From IMG/VR virus record IMGVR_UViG_2671180338_000009: DNA of 12,094 nt; one strand, 5' to 3'. The notes below the pieces were generated by a model. That model made no database searches and was not told where the DNA came from. It saw nothing but the letters and a program-made list of their open reading frames with translations. Source of the stretch: a virus. Its lineage: Duplodnaviria > Heunggongvirae > Uroviricota > Caudoviricetes. The translations under genes were made by a program, and so were the position numbers. This document shows, in pieces, positions 1 through 12,094 of the stretch; positions within the stretch are counted from its first letter, which is position 1; each line of letters opens with the position of its first letter.

Positions 1-185
1 GATACTGGTTGTCTGGAGATTCAGGGGGCCAGTCTACCACCCCTGATGTCAGGTAGGAAAACACCATATGTTTCTGCTCTGTTTTTCCTTAGAAATAGGC
101 ATCCTTGCTGGAACAAAGCGAGCAGCTATATTGACTCTATGTTGTGAGTGTGTTGATCCGTTCTGAGTTAATACATTTAAGTTGC

Positions 186-1295
186 TCACTCTGTTTCTGC
201 TATCCATTCCGGGATTTTTGCCTCAAGCTCAAGCTGCGTGGTAAAGCCGCTGTTATCAATGGTGTGCTCGGCTTTTGCAATAATCCAGTCCTGATTATCA
301 ATCTCGCTTTTAAATCCTGTTACCGTGCCATGCATTTCGGGGTAGAGTTCTGCACGTCCATGCGCCAGTGTGATGGAGAATGATGCGGCTCCGCGTTGTA
401 GCTGCTGCCACTTTGCCGCCGCTGCACGTCTTGCTGCCTGCTCGTTCTGATAAGTTTTGCGTAACACAAACACGTTGCCTTCCGCACCTTCCATATAGTC
501 GCCTTCCCGGCTGCTGCTTTTCTCCTTTTTTGGTTTTGACGGTTTGCGGCGTTTCACGCTGACTTTTTTCTTTTTCCCGTAATTAAGATCAAGCCAGTAA
601 GCGCGTACCCCCGTATACGCTTCGCGGTCAGCAATGCGGAACTGATGGCGATCGCCGCTGCTGCGTGTGATGGCGAACGAGGGCAACGGCTGGCCCTGTG
701 CGTTCACGCCACCACCGGGCATGATGAATAACAGATTACCGCTTTTTACCGTGGTGATTGCGCCCAGCATTTCCGCCATGCGCGTAAGGAAGGACATGTC
801 GCTTTCTTCGGTCTGGTCGGCGTGGTCGATTTCGATATCCATCAGCATTTCGCTGATTTGCGGTTTCAGACCATACCGATGAGCGATGGCGGATACCACA
901 CGCTCAACGGTCACATCATGCCAGGACACCTCACGTTTAACGTTAAATTCAGCCCGAAAATCTGCGCTTCTGGCTGAAACAGTCAGCCTGTCCGGCGGTC
1001 CTTCGTGAGCGATTTCATCAACAATGTAAGTGCCTTTTTCTGTCAGCGGTTCTCCCTTCCAGCCAATGAGAACCGTCAGGCGCGCGCCCCGTGGCGGTAG
1101 CTGCAACTGACCATCCGCATCATCCAGCGTGATGGTGAGCTGGTCCGCCTCAAATCCCCGGTTGTCGGTCAGTGACAGGCTCATCAGGCGCTCTGCCACG
1201 CCTGACAGCGTTTTACCCTCCGCGAGAATATCAAAATCCGGCATTTTCACGGGGTCTGTGCCCTGACTGAGCAATTGCATGGTGGTGTCGGTCAT
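186..1295 (-). CDS. D: P2 gpD-like tail protein (phage late control gene D family)
   Basis: Minus-strand ORF from ATG at 1293-1295 (MTDTTMQLLSQG...), about 369 aa, with a purine-rich Shine-Dalgarno (GGGAGGGAG, revcomp of 1299-1307) 3 nt upstream. The ORF-track start at 1427 adds an S/P/T/R-rich extension that looks non-coding. Assignment rests on size and on context next to FI-FII-E-T-U; family resemblance is recalled, not searched. Alternative start ATG at 1280. Confidence 0.6.
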   Translation of the reverse strand: MTDTTMQLLSQGTDPVKMPDFDILAEGKTLSGVAERLMSLSLTDNRGFEADQLTITLDDADGQLQLPPRGARLTVLIGWKGEPLTEKGTYIVDEIAHEGPPDRLTVSARSADFRAEFNVKREVSWHDVTVERVVSAIAHRYGLKPQISEMLMDIEIDHADQTEESDMSFLTRMAEMLGAITTVKSGNLLFIMPGGGVNAQGQPLPSFAITRSSGDRHQFRIADREAYTGVRAYWLDLNYGKKKKVSVKRRKPSKPKKEKSSSREGDYMEGAEGNVFVLRKTYQNEQAARRAAAAKWQQLQRGAASFSITLAHGRAELYPEMHGTVTGFKSEIDNQDWIIAKAEHTIDNSGFTTQLELEAKIPEWIAETE

Positions 1296-1452
1296 CTGCT
1301 CCCTCCCTGTGTGGCATGGTCGCATGTGCGTGCGGAGGGGGTTACTGCTTTTTGTTGTCGCCGTGGCGGGAGAATGGCGCAGGGGTGAGATTACGCGCGT
1401 GGTGGGTGATGATTGTTGCCGAATCATTTAACGGATACAAGGGGTTGAAGCT
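1296..1452. promoter_or_regulatory. Divergent intergenic region between D and FI; expected site of the late tail-operon promoter
   Basis: 157-bp non-coding gap between divergent start codons. In P2 the FI operon is driven by an Ogr-activated late promoter, but I could not find a clean TGT-N12-ACA activator site by eye. Confidence 0.3.
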
Positions 1453-2637
1453 ATGAGTGAAACTCGTTTTCATGGTGCCCGTGTTACGGAAAATACCGAC
1501 CTGGTAACAGCGATTAACGATGTTGATTCCAGCGTTATCGGTATCGTGGCAACGGCGGATGATGCGGACGCGGAGCTGTTCCCGCTGAACAAGCCCACAC
1601 TGCTGCCCCGCGTCAATGACGTGCTGGGAAAATGCGGAACAACGGGGACGCTTTATCGTGCGCTTAAGGCCATCGCAGACCAGGTGAGCACAAAGGTGAT
1701 CGTCGTTCGCGTGGCTGAACACAAAGAAGAAGACGGAAAAACGCAGGATCAACTGGTTATCGGTGGTTCTGAATCTGACGGCAGCTATACGGGGATGTAT
1801 GCGCTGCTTGTTGCAGAGCAGGATGAAAGCATCGGATACCGTCCGCGTATTCTGGCCGCGCCGGAGCTGGACACGGAGGCGGTGACAAAATCCCTGTGCG
1901 TGATTGCGGGTAAACTGCGCGCGTTTGTGTATGCCTCATGTCATGACTGTAACACGATGGCTGAGGCAATTACCTACCGCCAGAAATTCAACGAACGTGA
2001 GGTGATGCTCTTATGGCCGGACTTCATCGCCTACAACCCGAAAAGTGGCAAAAACGAAACGTTCCCCGCGCCTGCCTATGCGTGCGGCCTTCGTGCGTAC
2101 ATTGACCATGAGCAGGGCTGGCACAAATCGCTGTCCAACGTTCCGGTTAAAAATGTGCTGGGGATGTCCAGGCATGTGTTCTGGTCGTTGCAGGCCGAAG
2201 ACAGTGATGCCAACAGCCTCAACAACAAAGAAATCACGACCATTATTCGTCGCAACGGGTTCCGCTTCTGGGGCAACCGCACACCGGAAACGAACGCCTA
2301 CATCTTTGAGGTGTATACCCGAACCGCACAGGTGCTGGCTGATTCAATTGCGGAAGCGCAGTTTGAAACCATCGACAGTCCACTGACGCCTGCGAACGTG
2401 AAGGATGTTATCGGTGCCATCAGGGCAAAACTGGATTCACTGGTTACTGCCGGGAAACTGATTGGGGCGTCGTGCTGGTATGACGTGGTGGATAACGGCA
2501 CCACGAATTTACGTCAGGGGCGCGTGCGTATTCGCTACAAATATACGCCTGTTCCCCCGCTGGAAGACATGGAGCTTTACCAGTCGTTTACTGATGAATT
2601 CTTTGGTCCCGCATTTGCGGTGCTGGGAGGTGCCTGA
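1453..2637 (+). CDS. FI: Contractile tail sheath protein (P2 gpFI-like)
   Basis: 394-aa ORF. Conserved blocks recalled from P2 FI: DADAE.FPLNKP, KLRAF, EQGWHK.LSNV, IRR.GFRFWGNRT, YTRTAQV, YKYTPVPPLE. Stop codon overlaps the FII start (TGATG). Confidence 0.9.
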   Translation: MSETRFHGARVTENTDLVTAINDVDSSVIGIVATADDADAELFPLNKPTLLPRVNDVLGKCGTTGTLYRALKAIADQVSTKVIVVRVAEHKEEDGKTQDQLVIGGSESDGSYTGMYALLVAEQDESIGYRPRILAAPELDTEAVTKSLCVIAGKLRAFVYASCHDCNTMAEAITYRQKFNEREVMLLWPDFIAYNPKSGKNETFPAPAYACGLRAYIDHEQGWHKSLSNVPVKNVLGMSRHVFWSLQAEDSDANSLNNKEITTIIRRNGFRFWGNRTPETNAYIFEVYTRTAQVLADSIAEAQFETIDSPLTPANVKDVIGAIRAKLDSLVTAGKLIGASCWYDVVDNGTTNLRQGRVRIRYKYTPVPPLEDMELYQSFTDEFFGPAFAVLGGA

Positions 2638-3149
2638 TGGCTGTACCAAAACATCTTCGCTTTTTTACGCTGTTTGTGGATGGTGAAAACGAAGTGGGTA
2701 AGGTGACGTCCGTCACTCTGCCTAAGCTGACGCGCAAAACCGACAGCTACCGGGGTGGTGGCATGATGGGAGCGGTAAGTATTGATCTCGGCCTGGATGA
2801 CTCCGCGCTTGATGCGAGCTTTGTCATGGGGGGCGCAGTTCGTGAGCTGTTCCTTAAGTATGGCGGCACGATTGACGGTACGCTGCTGCGTTTTGCGGGT
2901 GAATACTACACCGACGCTGAAAGCGACCTGTATGAAGTCGAAATGCGCGGACGTGTGACGGAAATTGATATGGGGGAAGCCAAACAGGGCGAAGCCACAT
3001 CACACACTTACGCCATTAAAAACACCTACTACAAGCTGAGTGTTAACGATCGCCCGTTGTGGGAGATTGACCTGCTGAACTTCATTTACCGGAAGGACGG
3101 CAGGGACATTGTGCCCGATCGCATCCGTTCCGCGCTCGGGCTTGGCTGA
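2637..3149 (+). CDS. FII: Tail tube protein (P2 gpFII-like)
   Basis: 170-aa ORF directly after FI with translational coupling (ATG overlaps the FI stop). Motifs VTLPKLTRK, YRGGGM, DLGLDD and RFAG.Y resemble P2 FII. Confidence 0.9.
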   Translation: MAVPKHLRFFTLFVDGENEVGKVTSVTLPKLTRKTDSYRGGGMMGAVSIDLGLDDSALDASFVMGGAVRELFLKYGGTIDGTLLRFAGEYYTDAESDLYEVEMRGRVTEIDMGEAKQGEATSHTYAIKNTYYKLSVNDRPLWEIDLLNFIYRKDGRDIVPDRIRSALGLG

Positions 3150-3203
3150 TAAGTAATATGCAGGCGGCGCAGTGCGTCGCCTCTGACTGAAAGGAGTTTC
3201 CTG

Positions 3204-3569
3204 ATGAAAGAGACGAAAAACATCGATACCGAAAACACGGTCGTTGCTGACACTGTGAAAGAAACCAGTGAGCGTGGCGTAAAACTTACCCAACCAATTG
3301 AGCGAGGCGGCGAAAAAATCACGTATGTGGAGATCACCGGGGCTATTGAGCAGGCTGGATCTCTGCGAGATTTGTCGCTGTCTGATGTGCTGAATTTGAA
3401 AGCGGAATCCATGTTTACGCTGCTGTCACGCGTGACATCACCGCGACTGGATGAAGTGACGATCAAAAAAATGGCATCCCGTGACTTTATTCAGTTATGT
3501 GTGGTTGCCGTAAATTTTTTGAGCGGTGCGGACTCTGGCGAGAAGAACGAACAGGCGACGGAAGCCTGA
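3204..3569 (+). CDS. E: Tail assembly chaperone gpE (zero-frame product)
   Basis: 121-aa ORF with AAGGAG Shine-Dalgarno at 3191-3196, in the position between tube and tape measure. Contains the TTTTTTG slippery heptamer in frame. Confidence 0.8.
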   Translation: MKETKNIDTENTVVADTVKETSERGVKLTQPIERGGEKITYVEITGAIEQAGSLRDLSLSDVLNLKAESMFTLLSRVTSPRLDEVTIKKMASRDFIQLCVVAVNFLSGADSGEKNEQATEA

Positions 3570-3733
3570 TCACGGTTGTGTGCTTTGAGCACATAGAAGA
3601 CTTTGTGGCGGATATTGCCGCCATTTTTAACTGGTCGCCCGCCGAAATCTTCATGATGACGCCCGGCGAAGTGGTTAGCTGGCGTGAGCGGGCGGCACTT
3701 CGCAGCGGGAATGCAGACAATGAAGACTCTTGA
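3204..3733 (+). CDS. E': Tail assembly chaperone E+E' fusion made by programmed -1 frameshift (join 3204..3521 with 3521..3733)
   Basis: Slippery heptamer T_TTT_TTG at 3515-3521 is in X_XXY_YYZ phase with the E frame. The -1 frame is open from there to TGA at 3731-3733 and matches ORF 3497..3733. This is analogous to P2 E/E' and lambda G/GT. The fusion overlaps the start of T. Confidence 0.7.
3515..3521 (+). other. -1 ribosomal frameshift slippery site (TTTTTTG)
   Basis: Seen directly in the sequence; phase is correct relative to the E reading frame. Confidence 0.7.
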
Positions 3734-6527
3734 TATCCGGGTCGCTTTCAGCGCCGTTGACAGGCTGACCCGGCCTGCCGAAAACGCCCGCCGCCTGATG
3801 GGGCAGTTTGGTGACTCCATCCAGCGAACGCAGGGGGCGATCAAAAATCTCGAGCGTCAGGCGCGTTCATTTGAGCGCGCCCGTGACGCTGTCAGTAAAG
3901 CGGATGCGGGCATCGTGAAAGCACGACGCCAGCTTAACGCCCTTAATCAGTTACAACGCACGGGTACAGTGCTCAGCGAAAAACAACAAAAGCTGATGCA
4001 GCAGTTAAGCACCCGGCTTGAACGCCTGAATGAATCGCGCACACGGGAAATTCAGAAAATGCGGGAACTTGGCGGAGAGCTGAAACGCCACGGCATTTCC
4101 CTGACAGGCAGCGATAACACCATCCAGCAGGCCATCAGACGCACCGGACAATACAACAACCAGCTTGAACGCGAACGGCGGGCGCTTGCGCGTGTAACGC
4201 AGGCGCGTGAGCGGTATTCACGCGCGCAGGAAACAGCGGGAAAACTGAAAACAGGTGGTGCGCTGGCAACAGGTGCGGCGGCAGCGGGCGGCTATGCTGC
4301 CGGGCGTTTTTTGCAGCCCGCTATCGGGTTCGGGAAAGAGATGTCCCGTGTTCAGGCACTGACGCGAATCGATAAAAACAGCCCGCAGTTTAAGGCGCTG
4401 CGTGAGCAGGCGTTAAAACTTGGCTCTGAAACGCAGTTCACCGCAGGCGATGCCGCCAGTGGACAGGCATTTCTTGCAATGGCTGGTTTCACACCGCAGG
4501 CCATTCAGGCTGCGCTTCCCGGCGTGCTGAGCATGGCAACGGCTGGCGGTATGGACCTCGGCGAGACGGCGGATATTGGTTCCAATATCCTGACGCAGTT
4601 CGGCCTCTCTGCTGACCAGATGGACCGGGTCGGTGACACACTTACCGCAGCGTTTACCCGTACCAACACTGACCTTCGCGCACTGGGCGAAACCATGAAA
4701 TATGCAGGTCCGGTGGCGGGTAAGCTGGGAATATCGCTGGAGCAGGCCGCAGCGATGGCGGGCGTGCTGGCGAAGATGGGTATCAGGGGGAGTGATGCAG
4801 GTACAGCGTTGCGTAAAAGCCTGGCCAATCTGTCATCACCGCCAAAGGCAGCGGCAGAAGCACTGAAAGAGCTGGGGGTGTCAGTTGCTGACGCCAAAGG
4901 CAAAATGCGCCCGATGGAGAATGTGCTGGCCGATCTCTATAAAGCCACCCGCAAATACGGGGAGGTTGACCGGGTATCGTTCTTTAAGGACATTGCCGGA
5001 GAAGAGGCTTTCACATCATTTATGGGCCTCGTTGATGCGGCAGGTGACGGCTTCTTAGCCAAACTGAGAAAAGAACTTGAAGGCGCGCGCGGTGAGGCAG
5101 AACGCACGGCAAAGGTTATGGCCAATAACCTTGATGGCAACCTGAAATCACTCGGCAGTGCATGGGAAGGTCTGCGTATTCGCATCAGTGATCTGGTTGA
5201 CGGTCCGCTGCGTTCTGTCACGCAGTGGCTCACGCGGGTTGTCTCAAAGGTGACGGCGCTGGCGCAGGCCCACCCGGCACTGACGCGCCAGTTACTGATA
5301 GCGGGAGGCGCACTGCTGGCGACAACAGCAACGGTTGGTTCGTTGTCTCTGGTTATTGGGGTGCTTCACGGGAAGCTGGCTACGTTGCGTCTCGGTTTTT
5401 CTCTCCTGACCGAATCAATGAATGTTGTCAGGGTTCTGCCTGCATTATGGGGAATGGTGACGGGTTCCGTTTCTTTACTTGGTGGCGCTATCGGGGCGCT
5501 GTTCAGTCCGGTTAGTCTTATCGTGGCTGCGCTTGCCGGAGCTGCCGTTCTTATCTGGAAATACTGGGATCCCATCAGGGCATTTTTTGCCGGGGTGTTC
5601 AGCGGGATTATGGAAAGGCTGACCCCGTTGCGCGAAACCTTTGAACGGTTTGGCCCTGTTTTTGATGTCGTGCGCGATGGGATTATTCAGGTCTTTAACT
5701 GGTTTAAATCGCTGCTGTCACCGATGGAGTCCAGCAAGGAAACGCTGGATAAATGTGCCAGTGCTGGCGAGATATTCGGTAACGTTCTTGGCGGTGCGTT
5801 ACAACTTGTTCTGACACCTGCAAAAATGCTACTGGATACGCTGGCGTGGATACTTGAAAAACTTGGCGTCCTTCCGGATGAAGCGGAAAGGGCGCGCAAG
5901 AAAATCGAAGACGCACAGCGTGCGGCCATTCTTCAGGACAAGGTTGCCTTGCTTCAGGGGGACCTGGCGAAAATCAATCCGCCGAAGCCTGTGGAAAATG
6001 GCAATGGCACCGGAGGTGATAAACCCAAAGACAACAAACCGCTCACAGACAGCAATACCGGGACGCTACGCAGACTCAGCAAAATTGCTGATAACACAGG
6101 TAAGCTGGTTGATGAGACGAAAAAACGCATTGGCCCCGGCGATATTGTCTTTAAGAACCTGCCCCGCGCACTTGCTGTTCGTGGGGAGTGGCAGGAGCGG
6201 AAGATTGCGCAGGTCAGTAAGCCTGCCCCCGCAATTAATATCACACCCGTGGTCCCGGCTCCGCTGCCTCCGGCGCTGGTCCCTGTTGTTGCGGCCAGCT
6301 CCCGCCCGGTGGCGGAGGCCATACGCTCTCCAGTGGCATCAGTTCCTGTAACTTCCCGTAACCGGGAGCCTGTTGCCTCCGGATTTGGTGGTGAAATTCA
6401 TGTTCATCTGCATAACGTTGTTACGCAGAATCCCCGCGAACTGGCGAAACTGGTCGGTGAAATGGTCAGGGCAGAAATGGAACGGCGCGCCCGTGCCGGG
6501 CGTGGCAGTTTTTACGATAAAGATTGA
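3711..6527 (+). CDS. T: Tail tape measure protein (P2 gpT-like)
   Basis: About 938-aa ORF after E/E'. N-terminal half is coiled-coil-like and rich in Q/R/E/L; there is a central Ala/Gly-rich hydrophobic stretch and a C-terminal Pro/Val-rich tail. Start taken as ATG 3711 (alternative ATG 3720); the ORF-track start at 3684 is a GTG extension. Confidence 0.85.
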   Translation: MQTMKTLDIRVAFSAVDRLTRPAENARRLMGQFGDSIQRTQGAIKNLERQARSFERARDAVSKADAGIVKARRQLNALNQLQRTGTVLSEKQQKLMQQLSTRLERLNESRTREIQKMRELGGELKRHGISLTGSDNTIQQAIRRTGQYNNQLERERRALARVTQARERYSRAQETAGKLKTGGALATGAAAAGGYAAGRFLQPAIGFGKEMSRVQALTRIDKNSPQFKALREQALKLGSETQFTAGDAASGQAFLAMAGFTPQAIQAALPGVLSMATAGGMDLGETADIGSNILTQFGLSADQMDRVGDTLTAAFTRTNTDLRALGETMKYAGPVAGKLGISLEQAAAMAGVLAKMGIRGSDAGTALRKSLANLSSPPKAAAEALKELGVSVADAKGKMRPMENVLADLYKATRKYGEVDRVSFFKDIAGEEAFTSFMGLVDAAGDGFLAKLRKELEGARGEAERTAKVMANNLDGNLKSLGSAWEGLRIRISDLVDGPLRSVTQWLTRVVSKVTALAQAHPALTRQLLIAGGALLATTATVGSLSLVIGVLHGKLATLRLGFSLLTESMNVVRVLPALWGMVTGSVSLLGGAIGALFSPVSLIVAALAGAAVLIWKYWDPIRAFFAGVFSGIMERLTPLRETFERFGPVFDVVRDGIIQVFNWFKSLLSPMESSKETLDKCASAGEIFGNVLGGALQLVLTPAKMLLDTLAWILEKLGVLPDEAERARKKIEDAQRAAILQDKVALLQGDLAKINPPKPVENGNGTGGDKPKDNKPLTDSNTGTLRRLSKIADNTGKLVDETKKRIGPGDIVFKNLPRALAVRGEWQERKIAQVSKPAPAINITPVVPAPLPPALVPVVAASSRPVAEAIRSPVASVPVTSRNREPVASGFGGEIHVHLHNVVTQNPRELAKLVGEMVRAEMERRARAGRGSFYDKD

Positions 6528-6539
6528 GGAGTCATGGCC

Positions 6540-7028
6540 ATGATGATGATCTACGGCATGTTTGTTTTTGAGCTGCGTACATTGCCGCATCAGCAGTTAC
6601 AGCAAAACAAAAGCTGGCGGCATGTGAAAAATGAACGCGTTAACCGTTCGGCAAGCTGGCAGTATATCGGTGCAGGTGATGAGCGCATCGTTCTTTCTGG
6701 TGTGCTTTATCCTGAAATTACAGGTGGCGAAGTGTCGCTGTCGCTGCTGACCACGCAGGCGTATACAGGACGACCCTGGCCTCTGATTGATGGCGTCGGG
6801 CAGATTTACGGCATGTATGTCCTGACCGAAACGAATACGACCCGCTCCGAGTTTGATCGCTACGGTAAGGCGAAAAAGATAGAATTTTCACTGACTCTTG
6901 AACGCTGTGATGAGGATTTGCGGGAGCGCCTGCAATCCTCATCGTTCAGCGATATGCTGTCCGGCTTCAAAGATAAGGTAACATCATCCCTTAACAGCGC
7001 GGCCAGTTCAGTTAAAGGGTTGTTCTGA
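6540..7028 (+). CDS. U: Tail protein gpU-like
   Basis: MMMIYGMFVFELRTLP... resembles the P2 gpU N-terminus. GAGGA Shine-Dalgarno at 6526-6530 gives 9-nt spacing to ATG 6540; ATG 6534 is an alternative start. Confidence 0.85.
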   Translation: MMMIYGMFVFELRTLPHQQLQQNKSWRHVKNERVNRSASWQYIGAGDERIVLSGVLYPEITGGEVSLSLLTTQAYTGRPWPLIDGVGQIYGMYVLTETNTTRSEFDRYGKAKKIEFSLTLERCDEDLRERLQSSSFSDMLSGFKDKVTSSLNSAASSVKGLF

Positions 7029-7039
7029 TTTAACACAAA

Positions 7040-7075
7040 AACCGCTAATGGTCAGATTAGCGGTTATTTTGTTTC
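7040..7075. terminator. Bidirectional rho-independent terminator between convergent U and pin
   Basis: 10-bp stem AACCGCTAAT (7040-7049) pairs with ATTAGCGGTT (7056-7065) around a 6-nt loop. It is followed by ATTTTGTTT on the + strand and by TTTGTGTT on the - strand. Confidence 0.5.
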
Positions 7076-7651
7076 CTGACTCTTCTCTATTGTTCCGATT
7101 GATTCTCCTGCGGGGTGGTAACGATAAATCGTCGATATACCAATGCCGTAAATTATTGCCAGTTGTTTTCTGTCGTGCCCGTTTTTGATCAGCCTTGCTA
7201 TTTGCTCATGCTGTTCTTTTGTCAGCTTCGGTCGACGTCCGCCTGTGCGCCCCCGTGCGCGTGCTGCCGCCAGTCCGGCCAGTGTACGTTCAACAATTAA
7301 TTCACGTTCCATTTCAGCCAGGGCACCCATCACGTGGAAGAAAAAACGCCCCATTGGAGAAGATGTATCTATGCTGTCGGTCAGACTGCGAAAATTAATT
7401 CCTCGCTCCCGTAGTTCCCCGACGAGAGAAATCAGATGTTTCATGCTTCGCCCGAGGCGATCCAGTTTCCAGACAACCAGCGTGTCACCTTTTTGAAGGC
7501 GCTTTAAAGCGCGTTTTAATCCCGGTCGGTCTGTCTTTGTCCCGCTTAATTTATCTTCAAATATTTGTTCACATCCTGCACAAACAAGAGCGTTTCGTTG
7601 CAGGTCTGTATTCTGGTCATTTGTTGATACCCTTACATAGCCAATCAGCAC
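7064..7651 (-). CDS. pin: Serine DNA invertase, Hin/Gin/Pin/Cin family
   Basis: N-terminus (M)LIGYVRVSTNDQNTDLQRNAL... with the catalytic Ser in the GYVRVS motif and a C-terminal HTH. It is near-identical over long stretches to Gin/Pin as I recall them. Start taken as GTG at 7649-7651 with GGGAGA Shine-Dalgarno upstream; the ORF-track start at 7675 is also GTG. Confidence 0.85.
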   Translation of the reverse strand: MLIGYVRVSTNDQNTDLQRNALVCAGCEQIFEDKLSGTKTDRPGLKRALKRLQKGDTLVVWKLDRLGRSMKHLISLVGELRERGINFRSLTDSIDTSSPMGRFFFHVMGALAEMERELIVERTLAGLAAARARGRTGGRRPKLTKEQHEQIARLIKNGHDRKQLAIIYGIGISTIYRYHPAGESIGTIEKSQETK

Positions 7652-7705
7652 GCTGAATCTCCCGTCCAAAAGCACAAATCATGCCATGCAGGCCAGAAAC
7701 CGCCA

Positions 7706-7733
7706 TTATCTAAAACCTCGGTTTACAGGAAAC
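7706..7733. other. gix/pix-like invertase crossover site 1
   Basis: TTATCTAAAACCTCGGTTTACAGGAAAC. Its reverse complement TTCCTGTAAACCGAGGTTTTAGATAA differs at one position from the Mu gix sequence as I recall it. The 2-bp core TC is at 7717-7718. It sits 55 bp upstream of the invertase start. Confidence 0.75.
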
Positions 7734-8412
7734 GGTAAATCAGGCTTCTGGCGCATTACAGAAAAACCAGAACGGCGCAGATATTCCGGGGAAAGATACC
7801 TTCACCAAAAATATTGGTGCCTGCCGCGCATATAGCTCATGGCTGAATATTGGTGGCGATAGTCAGGTCTGGACAACCGCGCAATTTATTTCGTGGCTGG
7901 AGAGTCAGGGAGCATTTAACCATCCTTACTGGATGTGCAAAGGCTCATGGGCTTATGCAAATAATAAGGTCATTACAGATACAGGTTGCGGAAATATTTG
8001 TCTTGCAGGTGCTGTGGTGGAAGTTATTGGCACTCGCGGCGCAATGACCATACGCGTTACCACGCCGAGCACGTCCAGCGGTGGCGGAATTACTAACGCT
8101 CAATTCACTTATATTAATCATGGTGATGCTTACGCTCCTGGCTGGCGACGAGACTACAACACGAAAAATCAACAACCTGCATTTGCTTTAGGGCAAACAG
8201 GAAGCACTGTCGGAAATGATAAAGCTGTTGGCTGGAACTGGAATAGCGGGGTCTATAACGCAAACATTGGTGGCGCATCGACATTAATCCTCCACTTCAA
8301 TATGAATACGGGGAGCTGCCCTGCTGTACAGTTCCGCGTGAATTACAGGAACGGCGGTATTTTTTATCGTTCAGCGCGTGATGGTTATGGCTTTGAAGCT
8401 GACTGGTCAGAG
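7714..8412 (+). pseudogene. 5' portion of a variable tail-fibre C-terminal domain, truncated by IS insertion
   Basis: The frame is open from just after TAA 7711-7713 (inside the gix site) to the IS boundary, with no start codon of its own. It begins LGLQETVNQASGALQKNQNG..., typical of an invertible-segment tail-fibre module that is expressed only when fused to the constant part. It ends ...GFEADWSE, and the IS left end supplies the TGA stop at 8413-8415. Confidence 0.7.
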
Positions 8413-8476
8413 TGAGGTAGCCTGAGTTTAACGGACACTCCTTCCTGAAATAGAATGGCATCAGAAGGAGCTAATA

Positions 8477-8779
8477 ATGAGCAGAAAAACCCAACGTTAC
8501 TCTAAAGAGTTCAAAGCCGAAGCTGTCAGAACGGTTCTTGAAAATCAACTTTCGATCAGTGAAGGCGCTTCCCGATTATCTCTTCCTGAAGGCACTTTAG
8601 GACAATGGGTTACCGCCGCCAGAAAAGGGCTCGGTACTCCTGGTTCCCGCACGGTGGCTGAACTGGAATCTGAAATTCTGCAACTGCGTAAGGCGTTAAA
8701 TGAAGCTCGCCTTGAGCGAGATATATTAAAAAAAGCAACAGCGTATTTTGCACAGGAGTCGCTGAAAAATACGCGTTAA
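8477..8779 (+). CDS. IS3-family transposase OrfA (HTH and leucine-zipper part)
   Basis: 100-aa ORF MSRKTQRYSKEFKAEAVRTV... with the slippery run A_AAA_AAA_G at 8728-8735 near its 3' end. Confidence 0.9.
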   Translation: MSRKTQRYSKEFKAEAVRTVLENQLSISEGASRLSLPEGTLGQWVTAARKGLGTPGSRTVAELESEILQLRKALNEARLERDILKKATAYFAQESLKNTR

Positions 8780-9633
8780 TCGAACAATGGCGACAACAAT
8801 TTCCCATTGAAGCGATGTGTCAGGTATTTGGTGTATCCAGGAGCGGTTATTACAACTGGGTACAGCATGAACCCTCAGACAGAAAACAAAGTGATGAGCG
8901 GCTAAAACTGGAGATTAAGGTGGCACATATCCGCACTCGCGAAACATATGGAACCCGGCGGCTCCAGACGGAGCTGGCAGAGAATGGCATCATCGTTGGT
9001 CGTGACCGACTGGCACGTCTTCGTAAGGAGCTAAGGCTACGCTGTAAGCAGAAACGCAAGTTCAGAGCGACTACGAACTCGAACCACAATCTGCCAGTTG
9101 CGCCAAATCTGCTGAACCAGACGTTCGCTCCTACAGCACCAAATCAGGTCTGGGTGGCGGACCTGACGTATGTTGCCACACAGGAGGGATGGTTGTACCT
9201 CGCTGGCATCAAAGATGTTTATACGTGCGAAATTGTCGGCTACGCCATGGGAGAGCGCATGACAAAAGAGCTGACAGGTAAAGCCCTGTTTATGGCGCTC
9301 AGGAGCCAGCGCCCACCTGCCGGGCTAATCCACCACTCTGATCGAGGTTCACAGTACTGCGCATACGATTACCGGGTCATACAGGAGCAGTCTGGTCTGA
9401 AAACATCAATGTCGCGTAAAGGTAACTGTTACGACAACGCTCCGATGGAAAGCTTCTGGGGAACGCTGAAAAATGAGAGCCTGAGCCACTATCGTTTTAA
9501 TAACCGGGATGAAGCCATCTCAGTAATACGGGAATACATTGAGATTTTCTACAATCGTCAGCGTCGTCACTCTCGTCTGGGGAATATCTCCCCGGCAGCC
9601 TTCAGGGAAAAATATCATCAGATGGCTGCTTAA
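8477..9633 (+). CDS. IS3-family transposase OrfAB (-1 frameshift fusion; OrfB DDE catalytic domain 8815..9633)
   Basis: OrfB is in the -1 frame relative to OrfA, and that frame is open from 8734. DDE-type motifs are present (HSDRGSQY, SMSRKGNCYDNAPMESFWGTLKNE, YNRQRRHSRLG). Confidence 0.9.
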
Positions 9634-9676
9634 AAAAAGAACAAATGGTAGTGTCCGCTATTGCCAGTACACCTCA

Positions 9677-10693
9677 ACGGCAGGCAAGTTTCCGTATTTT
9701 ACGGGGAATGATGTCGCCAGCCTGGCAACCCTGACAAAAGTCGGGCGGGATATTCTTGCGAAATCGACCGTTGCTGCCGTTATCGAATACCTCGGTTTAC
9801 AGGAAACGGTAAACAAGGCTGGTAACGCCGTTCAGCGTTCCGGCGATAAAATGACCGGAGAACTGAAAATTGGCACGGTGAATGCGCTGCGAATTTTCAA
9901 TGATACCTTCGGTCTAATTTTCCGTCGTTCAGAAGATTTTCTTCATTTCATTCCGACGGCTGAAGGACAAGGCGAAAACGGTAATATCGGCCCATTAAGG
10001 CCATTCGCTATAAATCTGAGAACAGGTGCTATATCTGTCAGCCACGGGGCCAAAATTAAAGGAGGTCTAGCTATTGGAGCTACTGATAACGCACTGGGTG
10101 AAAACTCCATTGTTCTGGGAGATAACGACACCGGATTTAGGCAAGATGGAGATGGTATTATTAGCTTCTATTCAAATGGTTCGCGCATCGGACATATTGA
10201 TGAGTTAGGATTACATCTTTATAAAGATATTGAATCTAATGGCAGCAATTTTAGATTAAAAAGTAATTACCGCCACCACATTACATTCGCCAACGAAGAC
10301 GGAAGAATTCGTATGTTTTTGTGGAAAGATAACGGTGGTGATGGTGTTCATATTAATAACGGTTCAGATGGTGGTGGTGATTTCATTTTTAAAACAGATG
10401 GGGGATTTGCGCTGGGAAGTGGTGCGCAAGTTGCGTCTAGTGGCGATATTTATGGTTCAGTGTGGGAAAACAACTGGTTAAGCACATGGCTGCATAATCA
10501 TGTCGTTCGGGATATTCGTCTTGGCAGCATTGAATATAAAAACGTATGGCGCGACTACGGCTTTGGCGATGCGTCAGGTTATGTTTTAACAGCCGCAATT
10601 AACAGCAATGCGGATGATATTGTCGACACTGTTGCCAGAAGGCCAATTCAGAAATTGATTGGGGGAATATGGTACAACGTGGGGAGTGTTTAA
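9677..10693 (+). pseudogene. 5'-truncated tail-fibre gene (P2 gpH / Mu S type): 38 codons of constant region, embedded gix site, variable C-terminal domain
   Basis: The frame is open immediately from the IS right end (TAGKFPYFTGNDVASLATLTKVGRDILAKSTVAAVIEYLGLQETVNKAG...) and ends ...[11 protein letters not shown], like the P2 H C-terminus I recall (…GTWYNVAQV). There is no start codon or promoter of its own; the ORF-track start at 9539 lies inside the IS. Confidence 0.75.
9780..9807. other. gix/pix-like invertase crossover site 2 (inside tail-fibre coding sequence)
   Basis: TTATCGAATACCTCGGTTTACAGGAAAC. Sequence 9790-9813 is identical over 24 bp to 7716-7739 around site 1. It is on the same strand and in the same orientation as site 1 in the present arrangement. 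Confidence 0.65.
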
Positions 10694-10694
10694 G

Positions 10695-11222
10695 ATGATG
10701 CACCTGAAAAATATTAAGGCCGGGAATCCGAAAACACCGGAACAATACCAGCTAACTAAAAAAGCGGGCGTGGTATGGCTCTTTTGCGAAGATGGCAAAA
10801 ACTGGTATGAGGAACAAAAGAATTTTCAGCCAGACACCATAAAAATTGCTTACGATGAGAACAACATCATCGTTGCTGTCAGTAAAGACGTTTCAACTAT
10901 TAATCCTGAAGGGCTAAGCATAGTTGAAGTTCCTGATATTACGGCAAATCGTCACGCAGACAATAACGGAAAATGGATGTTTCTGGATGGTAAAGTAGTA
11001 AAGAGGGAATATACAGAACAGGAACTGCAACAACAGGCCGAATCACAAAAGGCCGCATTGCTTTCCGAAGCTGAATCAGTCATCCAGCCGCTGGAACGCG
11101 CTGTCAGGCTGAATATGGCGACGGACGAGGAACGCACACGACTGGAAGCATGGGAACGCTACAGTGTTCTGGTCAGCCGTGTGGATACGGCAAAGCCAGA
11201 ATGGCCACAAAAGCCTGAGTAA
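10695..11222 (+). CDS. tfa: Tail-fibre assembly chaperone (Tfa / P2 gpG-like), partner of the + strand variable domain
   Basis: Starts [23 protein letters not shown]... at ATG 10695, 1 nt after the tail-fibre stop. Its N-terminal ~45 aa are shared with the convergent paralogue and the C-terminus diverges. Confidence 0.85.
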
Positions 11223-11227
11223 AAATT

Positions 11228-11247
11228 AAGGCCCGATATCGGGCCTT
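11228..11247. terminator. Perfect 20-bp palindrome; bidirectional terminator between convergent tfa genes
   Basis: AAGGCCCGATATCGGGCCTT lies 5 bp after the tfa stop and 3 bp after the opposite tfa stop, flanked by A-rich and T-rich sequence. Confidence 0.55.
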
Positions 11248-11250
11248 GTT

Positions 11251-11784
11251 TCATTCTGGTTGTTCGGGAAACGTTACTGGCAGGCTGGAGGTGTCTGTGG
11301 ATTCGACCTTCTGCGCATAGAGCATCCACTCGGTTAATTTTTGTTTATTCTCGTCGGAAATAATGCCCAGCCGTAGCTGTGAGTCCCATAGCTGGGTTTT
11401 ATCCCTGACGAGCTGTAGCAGGCTTTGCTTTTCATTTTCCGCTTGTTGCCTCTGCTCTTCCCCGGTATAAGTTCGCTTTATCACTACGCCATCTTTGAAC
11501 ATCCATTTACCTGAAATATCAGCCCGGCGATTTGCTGTAATATCAGGAACCTCAACGACGCTTGCGCCTTCCGGATTAATTGCTGAAACATCCTTTTCAA
11601 TACAAATAATAACGCCGTTGTGGTCATAGACCATTTTCAACGTATCAGGCTGAAAGTTCTTTTGTTCCTCATACCAGTTTTTCCCATCCTCTGTATAAAG
11701 CCATTTGATGTTAAATTGTTTCGTTAGCTGGTATTGCTCTTTTGTTTCAGGATTACCAGCAGAAATGTTTTTTAAGTGCATCAT
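11251..11784 (-). CDS. tfa: Tail-fibre assembly chaperone, alternative copy (Tfa'), partner of the - strand variable domain
   Basis: Starts MMHLKNISAGNPETKEQYQLTKQ... and is convergent with the + strand tfa. Its start lies 2 nt downstream of the stop of the - strand tail-fibre fragment. Confidence 0.85.
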   Translation of the reverse strand: MMHLKNISAGNPETKEQYQLTKQFNIKWLYTEDGKNWYEEQKNFQPDTLKMVYDHNGVIICIEKDVSAINPEGASVVEVPDITANRRADISGKWMFKDGVVIKRTYTGEEQRQQAENEKQSLLQLVRDKTQLWDSQLRLGIISDENKQKLTEWMLYAQKVESTDTSSLPVTFPEQPE

Positions 11785-11786
11785 CG

Positions 11787-12053
11787 TTAAATACTCCCCG
11801 CGTTATACCACGTCCCATTAATGCAATACTGAATTGGCCTTGCCTGAGTTGTATCAATTAGTTCATCTCTGTTTGAGTTAACGGAACCGGTAACAACATA
11901 ACCTGACCTGTCAGACCATCCGGGACCATTCCATGTCTGAACAGATAACAGACCACCAAGGCGAATACCTGTAATAAACCTTGAGTTACATTCTGCCTGC
12001 GTATATGCACCAACATCTCCCGCAGAGGGTTTGCGGGTTGTGGTGTAAAACTC
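11787..12053 (-). pseudogene. 3' portion of the variable tail-fibre C-terminal domain (the other half of 7714..8412)
   Basis: Hand translation of the - strand frame gives EFYTTTRKPSAGDVGAYTQAECNSRFITGIRLGGLLSVQTWNGPGWSDRSGYVVTGSVNSNRDELIDTTQARPIQYCINGTWYNAGSI, then a stop at 11787-11789. The frame is open right up to the IS boundary at 12053 and has no start codon; it is absent from the ORF track for that reason. Confidence 0.7.
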
Positions 12054-12094
12054 TGAGGTGTACTGGCAATAGCGGACACTACCATTTGTTCTTT
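12054..12094 (-). mobile_element. Terminal 41 bp (right-end inverted repeat) of a second, inverted IS600-like copy, cut by the window edge
   Basis: 12054-12094 is the exact reverse complement of 9636-9676, the right end of the complete IS. Identity stops precisely at the IS terminus. Confidence 0.75.

Follow-up and report, generated by a model that had tools for sequence, protein, structure and literature searches.

The inverted FI-U tail block of a P2-like locus is the normal gene order of P88-like phages

The window analyzed here, a stretch of 12,094 nucleotides (IMG/VR record IMGVR_UViG_2671180338_000009), carries a P2-like tail module in which the genes from FI to U run opposite to gene D. 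This inverted FI-U block is the normal inherited order of P88-like phages and is not peculiar to this locus. We consider it very probable that the window represents the tail region of a defective P88-related prophage and that its order was inherited from one ancient inversion in a deep P2-like subclade. The layout is already known, being standard in published, annotated phages, and the FI-U inversion does not merit a flag as a rearrangement or as a novel system.

The contractile tail module was P2-like (Peduoviridae), with homologues of gpD, FI, FII, gpE/E', gpT, and gpU all present at 32 to 50% identity to P2 (blastp and Pfam; Table 1). The canonical P2 order, in which FI-U is collinear with D and with H-G, was not found; instead, the ORF layout bore out the original prediction that the FI-U block lies on the + strand, inverted relative to P2, with D and the invertase gene on the − strand. 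The ORF at 186-1295, which had been read as D, indeed encodes a gpD homologue (50% identity to P2 gpD, E value = 8e-121, and a PF05954 domain), and its product was 98.6% identical to P88 gpD. We dropped a longer D ORF (186-1427, 413 amino acids) because the alignments to the gpD proteins of P2 and P88 both begin at 1295; the extension would also overlie the conserved promoter region described below. The gpT ORF opens at a GTG at 3684, and the ATG at 3720 is the start used in the P88 annotation. A −1 frameshift from E into E' at TTTTTTG is predicted, as the heptamer and a −1 ORF with a GpE domain are both present. No ogr gene was found directly downstream of D within the window; beyond D, the sequence corresponds to that of an O111 prophage in which a PIN-domain gene separates D from ogr.

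Table 1. Positions of genes, sites, and predicted signals in the window
Feature	Coordinates	Strand	Basis
gpD gene (tail/baseplate hub protein, 369 aa)	186-1295	−	Pfam PF05954 Phage_GPD 5e-17; blastp P2 gpD
Predicted extended −10 of D promoter, TGCGACCAT	1316-1324	−	Hexamer 1316-1321, 35 nt from activator-site edge
Ogr-type late activator site TGTCGCCGTGGCGGGAGA, TGT-N12-AGA	1356-1373		Position conserved in relatives; consensus per PMC3931495
Predicted −10 of pF, GATGAT	1408-1413	+	Hexamer at offset 35 from site edge
FI tail sheath gene	1453-2637	+	Pfam sheath domains; 45% identity to P2 FI
FII tail tube gene	2637-3149	+	PF04985 Phage_tube 2e-46; 42% identity to P2 FII
gpE tail assembly chaperone gene	3204-3569	+	32% identity to P2 gpE
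Slippery heptamer T TTT TTG, predicted −1 frameshift into E'	3515-3521	+	Read from sequence; zero frame of E
E' extension, −1 frame (predicted)	3522-3733	+	PF06528 GpE 2.6e-12 on ORF 3497-3733
gpT tape measure gene	3720-6527	+	PF10145 PhageMin_Tail 1e-57; 32% identity to P2 gpT
gpU tail gene	6534-7028	+	PF06995 GpU 8e-39; 47% identity to P2 gpU
Bidirectional intrinsic terminator hairpin, convergent U/invertase	7040-7065	both	10-bp stem, T-runs on both strands
Gin/Pin-type serine DNA invertase gene	7064-7675	−	Resolvase + HTH_7 1.5e-50
gix-type crossover site	7706-7731	+	Exact pattern match; none expected by chance
Second gix-type copy	9780-9805	+	Pattern match

The window was 94 to 96% identical at the nucleotide level to the phages P88 and PhiSM (genus Xuanwuvirus), with exactly the same gene order; this identity held over the shared parts, which covered 62 to 73% of the window. 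High identity to P88 together with the same organization fits the genus Xuanwuvirus, an assignment that applies to the 12-kb window only. P88 and PhiSM both form plaques (PMC5285337, PMC6456863), and so does SEN4/5, a contractile-tailed phage (PMC5261728) that has the inverted order and no invertase. The inverted order was present in 80 of 80 IMG/VR relatives and in Klebsiella phages of the genera Reginaelenavirus and Reipivirus. Furthermore, a species-level genome survey, which covered prophages of many bacterial species, showed that every locus with a gpD at least 58% identical to that of the window was inverted (59/59), while every locus at or below 53% kept the P2 order (22/22). The divergent arrangement of D, which the original prediction had treated as an anomalous break from the canonical order, was thus shared by all of the more than 140 loci examined at gpD identities of at least 58%, spanning four ICTV genera, and is native to intact P2-like phages, the outcome named beforehand as refuting an anomaly.

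This distribution bears on two other explanations. That the block was inverted in place recently, in this one prophage, is barely credible: the order does differ from that of P2, and the locus has otherwise been rearranged by IS600, but viable phages and more than 140 independent loci down to 58% gpD identity share the order and the junction sequences, the regulatory architecture at the junctions is conserved, and neither junction has an IS end or a repeat. A recent inversion is already refuted by the clade-wide distribution. An assembly artifact, for which we could name no specific point in favor, has a vanishingly small probability and is likewise already refuted, given that both complete phage genomes and complete chromosomes show the identical layout, as do many independent assemblies.

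Neighbor-joining trees of D, FI, FII, and U, built without bootstrap and rooted on the canonical phiCTX, each recovered the inverted loci as monophyletic, which points to one ancient inversion that is now a trait of the clade. Divergence from P2 was alike inside the block (FI, 45% identity; FII, 42%; U, 47%) and outside it (D, 50%; V, 47%; W, 44%; J, 54%). The ancestor of the clade might instead have swapped FI-U for the homologous module of another P2-like phage in the opposite orientation; tailed phages commonly exchange modules, and the branch leading to the inverted clade was longest in the FI tree (0.149, versus 0.048 for D). We nevertheless regard such a replacement as unlikely, as the divergence from P2 is much the same for FI, FII, and U as for D, V, W, and J, FI identity to the window rises and falls with D identity over the full set of loci, and the geometry of the pF promoter is unchanged. 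Inversion of the FI-U unit in situ, as the original prediction had it, is the most economical origin of the order, but the event did not happen at this locus, the order being native to P88, PhiSM, and SEN4/5.

Both intervals to which the breakpoints had been assigned, 1296-1452 (the 157-bp spacer between D and FI) and 7029-7063 (between U and the invertase gene), are intergenic junctions. As had also been predicted, they contained no repeats or gix-like sites in a whole-window inverted-repeat search and in searches with the full gix pattern (3 mismatches) and the gix core (2 mismatches), with the exception of the terminator hairpin at 7040-7065, which is the only inverted repeat at either junction. 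The terminator scan matched this hairpin on both strands, with folding z-scores of −3.3 and −2.9. An invertase gene (7064-7675) adjoins one of the junctions, and serine invertases occasionally use secondary sites; the ancestral inversion might on these grounds be ascribed to a Gin-type invertase acting at pseudo-gix sites flanking FI-U. We find this highly improbable, since most loci of the inverted clade have no invertase at that place, phages of canonical order carry one too (e.g., Cartapus, between H' and FI), and neither junction holds a gix-like site even with 2 to 3 mismatches.

The invertase gene is part of the fiber module and lies outside the inverted block; it was 98% identical to that of P88 over 7067-7651. 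As in Gin/Hin/Pin-type segments, a serine invertase with Resolvase and HTH_7 domains adjoins the segment, but the inverted gix pair that would flank alternative fiber ends was not found: the two gix copies are direct repeats because a pair of IS600 copies flipped one of them. These two IS600 copies, inverted relative to each other, break the fiber region, with 9677-12053 flipped, which is also why the sole in-window piece of the constant tail-fiber part (9674-9865) lies on the + strand. Judged on the 12-kb window, the locus therefore does not represent an intact Xuanwuvirus phage, its tail-fiber genes being interrupted and rearranged by IS600.

The spacer between D and FI holds an Ogr-type activator site with one mismatch in its right half (AGA in the window, ACA in the consensus). 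A TGT-N12-ACA/AGA site at a fixed distance from FI was found in 58 of 61 distinct D-FI spacers; its center lay 74 to 89 nt upstream of the FI ATG in relatives, compared with 83 nt in P2 pF. Across the clade spacers, −10-like hexamers occurred exactly 35 nt from both edges of the site and practically never (~0) at other offsets, and the same offset rule recovered the four annotated P2 late transcription starts. Among clade members, 55/58 had the right (FI-side) hexamer at offset 35, as did 15/17 canonical loci, while the left (D-side) nAnn[A/C]T hexamer occupied the same position in 51/58 distinct clade intergenic regions versus 2/17 canonical loci. The spacer has the geometry of a pP/pO-type bidirectional promoter, with one dyad site and mirror −10 sequences on both sides. 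Predicted transcription would start near 1309 on the − strand for D, with a leader of only ~14 nt, and near 1420 on the + strand for pF. A sigma-70 consensus scan of the D-FI spacer gave no match, which is expected because late promoters are activator dependent. The conservation of these motifs suggests that a single shared Ogr-type site drives both D and FI-U; the D promoter is predicted from its motif, and we infer from sequence that the spacer motifs are working promoters.

We propose that the ancestral inversion took the whole pF-FI-FII-E/E'-T-U transcription unit, with one breakpoint between U and D and the other immediately upstream of the activator site of pF. The resulting order would have the baseplate and fiber genes on one strand, U-T-E/E'-FII-FI on the opposite strand, and D-ogr on the first strand again, and it would work because the inverted unit brought along an Ogr-dependent late promoter of its own. 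The inversion would also have put the dyad-symmetric Ogr site ~60 nt away from the start codon of D, where a mirror-image −10 on the D side may let transcription from the single site run leftwards into D (and ogr) and rightwards into FI-U, and the bidirectional terminator would shut the other junction, between U and the invertase gene. An operon split by inversion would in this way keep its late regulation through a symmetric activator site used both ways. On balance, we lean toward the broader proposal that a single ancient event defines a large, unremarked subclade of the Peduoviridae and that this inversion was able to become fixed because the Ogr site moved to the 5' end of D and a mirror −10 was then gained, creating a pP/pO-like bidirectional late promoter that keeps D-ogr under late control.

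The proposed subclade would include Xuanwuvirus, Senquatrovirus, Reginaelenavirus, Reipivirus, and many Enterobacterales prophages, and most members of the inverted clade have no invertase. The inversion cleanly marks this deep P2-like subclade and makes a convenient structural character for taxonomy. Within the papers searched, we found no explicit account of the inversion or of it as a synapomorphy, nor of a bidirectional D/FI promoter. We considered the xenorhabdicin locus (xnp1) as a published example and rejected it, as a variable region between its sheath and fiber genes implies the canonical order. The two junctions, D-ogr and U-fiber, were also observed to act as cargo slots, occupied in different relatives by a PIN-domain gene, an O-acetyltransferase, or an invertase cassette.

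Among known systems, P88 (Escherichia) and PhiSM (Citrobacter), Xuanwuvirus members of the Peduoviridae, have their genes ordered and oriented as in the window, starting at D and continuing over FI-U to the invertase and the invertible fiber segment; the window differs in its IS600-broken fiber region and in that ogr does not directly follow D. Salmonella SEN4/SEN5 (Senquatrovirus) and the Klebsiella phages of Reginaelenavirus and Reipivirus likewise have FI-U inverted and D-ogr on the fiber strand, but their gpD proteins are only 62 to 71% identical to that of the window, they have no invertase cassette by U, and they carry other fiber modules. Escherichia phage Cartapus (Elveevirus) is P2-like and shares with the window a Gin-type invertase (77% identical) and an invertible fiber segment, whereas its order is canonical and collinear (H-G-G'-H'-inv-FI...U-D-ogr) and its gpD is 53% identical. 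The F operon of P2 (Peduovirus) runs pF-FI-FII-E/E'-T-U-D, followed by ogr; the window resembles it in its homologous gene set, the internal order of FI-U, the TTTTTTG of E/E', and the activator site and −10 geometry of pF. In P2, however, D is the last gene of this operon and all are collinear with H-G, whereas in the window FI-U lies opposite to D and the fiber genes. The closest parallel to the spacer is P2 pP/pO, a mapped pair of divergent late promoters that share one 18-bp TGT-N12-(A/C)CA site, with −10 hexamers 35 to 40 nt from each edge and starts ~55 nt from the center on each side; the shared-site pP/pO promoter of Smp131 has been annotated likewise (PMC3931495). The site in the window is alike, but the pair predicted here from conservation would have D and FI, and not P and O, as its targets.

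We assigned the genes in the window by combining an ORF map with Pfam scans and blastp searches against the P2 proteins. The original prediction placed FI-U on the + strand and D and the invertase on the - strand, took the 186-1295 ORF to be a gpD homologue, and located the ends of the block in the intergenic stretches 1296-1452 and 7029-7063; all three points were confirmed. The FI-U genes and D are intact, with lengths equal to those of their P88 counterparts, and a T TTT TTG heptamer lies at 3515-3521 in the zero frame of E.

Genes and predicted promoter elements in the window
Feature	Position	Strand	Sequence	Basis
D (gpD)	186-1295	-		Pfam Phage_GPD; P2 gpD 50% identity, E 8e-121 (blastp)
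Predicted D-side extended -10	1324-1316	-	TGCGACCAT
Predicted activator site	1356-1373		TGTCGCCGTGGCGGGAGA	motif
Predicted FI-side hexamer	1408-1413	+	GATGAT
FI sheath	1453-2637	+		P2 FI 45% identity (blastp)
FII tube	2637-3149	+		P2 FII 42% identity (blastp)
E	3204-3569	+		P2 E 32% identity (blastp)
-1 frame ORF with GpE domain	to 3733	+		Pfam; overlaps E region
T tape measure	ends 6527	+		P2 T 32% identity (blastp)
U	6534-7028	+		P2 U 47% identity (blastp)
Invertase	7064-7675	-		Pfam Resolvase+HTH_7

This gene order had been taken for an anomaly of the locus, a view that did not hold, since viable phages share it. Megablast against phage genomes showed that the window is 94-96% identical to Escherichia phage P88, Xuanwuvirus P884B11, Citrobacter phage PhiSM, and several induced E. 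coli prophages. In their annotated records, P88 and PhiSM show exactly the order of the window, with D on one strand and FI-U on the other, followed by the invertase, an invertible fibre segment, and then H-I-J-W-V on the D strand. P88 is inducible and plaque forming (PMC5285337), and PhiSM is released spontaneously, forms plaques, and lysogenizes K-12 (PMC6456863); intact P2-like phages with this native order were thus found. FI was also divergent from D in 80/80 of the closest IMG/VR loci, found with the window gpD, and those long enough show U-T-FII-FI / D-ogr. The order is already known, since annotated genomes on deposit for ICTV-classified genera show it, and the window adds a further, degraded copy.

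Two records had peculiarities of their own. Product names in the PhiSM record (OR565851.1, 2294-4745) appear shifted by one gene: gpD carries the name "ogr/Delta-like zinc finger," and the name "late control gene D protein" stands at the sheath gene. In an IMG/VR relative with two invertase genes (IMGVR_UViG_2654587728_000014), the genes run T+ U+ inv- inv+ FII- FI- D+, with T-U flipped back relative to FI-FII; either a hybrid assembly or a secondary rearrangement could account for this.

One genome per bacterial species was scanned with a gpD alignment, and the resulting 80 loci were classified by tblastn. The block was inverted in 59/59 survey loci whose gpD is 58% or more identical to that of the window, where V W J I (H G) and D-ogr share a strand and U T FII FI lie on the opposite one, and it was canonical in 22/22 loci with gpD at most 53% identical (Cartapus counted in). 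Hosts of inverted loci include Salmonella, Edwardsiella, Symbiopectobacterium, Serratia, Erwinia, Enterobacter, Pantoea, Kosakonia, Klebsiella, Raoultella, Xenorhabdus, Photorhabdus, Providencia, Morganella, Yersinia, Hafnia, Pectobacterium, Brenneria, and one Aeromonas MAG. When phage genomes were searched with gpD (tblastn), a band of 60 to 80% identity appeared, and the members fetched all carry the inverted block. The block is inverted in Klebsiella phages Kp4871-3 (Reginaelenavirus) and Kp4848-1 (Reipivirus) and in Salmonella phage SEN5 (Senquatrovirus), where the invertase is missing and G directly faces U; SEN5 has a contractile tail and forms plaques (PMC5261728). In Escherichia phage Cartapus (Elveevirus, gpD 53%), the order is canonical and collinear, and an invertase gene sits between H' and FI. 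A P88-like prophage whose gpD is 95-98% identical to that of the window was also found on a contig labelled Vagococcus sp. WN89Y (NZ_JBQPOM010000071.1), in the assembly of a Firmicute; enterobacterial DNA that contaminated the assembly or was mislabelled is the likely source.

In neighbor-joining trees of D, FI, FII, and U (built without bootstrap and rooted on phiCTX, whose order is canonical), the inverted loci formed one clade with no canonical members inside. Identity to P2 is similar within the block (FI, 45%; FII, 42%; U, 47%) and outside it (D, 50%; V, 47%; W, 44%; J, 54%). It is formally conceivable that a homologous module replaced FI-U in reverse orientation; the simplest reading of the sequences is that FI-U inverted once, anciently, in a common ancestor and was inherited vertically since. 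Relative to P2, an in-place inversion, as a single ancestral event, is thus the most economical proposal, but it does not hold as a local event, since P88, PhiSM, and all of the inverted survey loci share the order. An invertase-mediated origin is unsupported: most inverted loci lack an invertase, and a search of both junctions for a gix-like core found none, as the original prediction had noted, the only gix sites in the window being at 7706-7731 and 9780-9805. The invertase is part of the fibre module and lies on the fibre strand in inverted and canonical phages alike.

At the U/invertase junction, a hairpin at 7040-7065 (10-bp stem, T-runs on both strands) was scored by a terminator scan in both directions and folded more stably than shuffled sequences (z = -3.3 and -2.9); it is a normal terminator shared by convergent genes. 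Both block junctions serve as cargo slots. An E. coli O111 prophage adjoining ihfA (L170, 14424-15926), to which window positions 35-260 are 100% identical, has a PIN-domain gene between D and ogr; in place of the invertase cassette, it has an O-acetyltransferase gene separating U from the fibre genes. No ogr was found directly after D within the window.

The D-FI spacer is 157 bp in the window and apparently 122 to 195 bp across the clade, as computed from extrapolated alignment starts. In 58/61 distinct spacers, a TGT-N12-ACA (or AGA) site is centred 74 to 89 nt upstream of the FI ATG, compared with 83 nt at P2 pF; TGT-N12-ACA is the published consensus for the four late promoters of P2 that depend on Ogr (PMC3931495). 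In spacers where the D ATG itself was readable, it lay at a near-constant 50 to 73 nt from the site edge. Spacers anchored on the site had conserved blocks on both sides, with a hexamer nAnn[A/C]T whose first base was exactly 35 nt from the site edge in 55/58 spacers on the FI side and in 51/58 on the D side, and which was almost absent at other offsets in 25-45. Placing the transcription start 7 nt past the hexamer reproduced the starts annotated in the P2 record within ~1 nt (pP, 3016; pO, 3127; pF, 17626; pV, 10308) and predicted starts at ~1420 (FI side) and ~1309 (D side) in the window. In contrast, canonical-order loci had the FI-side hexamer in 15/17 cases and the mirror hexamer in only 2/17. 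From the site position, the hexamer conservation, the match to P2 starts, and this contrast, we infer that D and FI would have late promoters sharing an activator site: FI-U would have retained its own pF through the inversion, which would have put the symmetric activator site beside D and so given D a mirror-image late promoter. P88 gp50, a 43-aa ORF annotated over this conserved spacer and the FI start (window 1345-1473, - strand), is probably a spurious call.

An IS600 at 8413-9676 lies inside the alternative fibre end H'v, which occupies 7933-8412 and resumes on the - strand around 12053-11790; positions 12054-12094 hold the start of another IS600 copy, in inverted orientation, in the constant part of H. 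Comparison with P88 and an un-rearranged relative (L005) showed that 9677-12053 was flipped between the two copies, and because of this flip both gix sites are on the + strand, as direct repeats. The Gin-type switch has probably become frozen or lost the ability to invert the segment. With its fibre genes broken, this copy is unlikely to be a functional phage.

In the literature searched, we found no explicit description of the inversion as a character of the clade or of the putative shared D/FI activator site; these are the one mildly new element, and their basis is sequence conservation. Among known entities, those closest to the window are P88 and PhiSM, which are organised in the same way, P2, whose genes and promoter logic match but whose orientation differs, and the P2 pP/pO promoter pair. 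The predicted D/FI pair has the same geometry as the P2 pP/pO pair, in which divergent promoters have one activator site in common.
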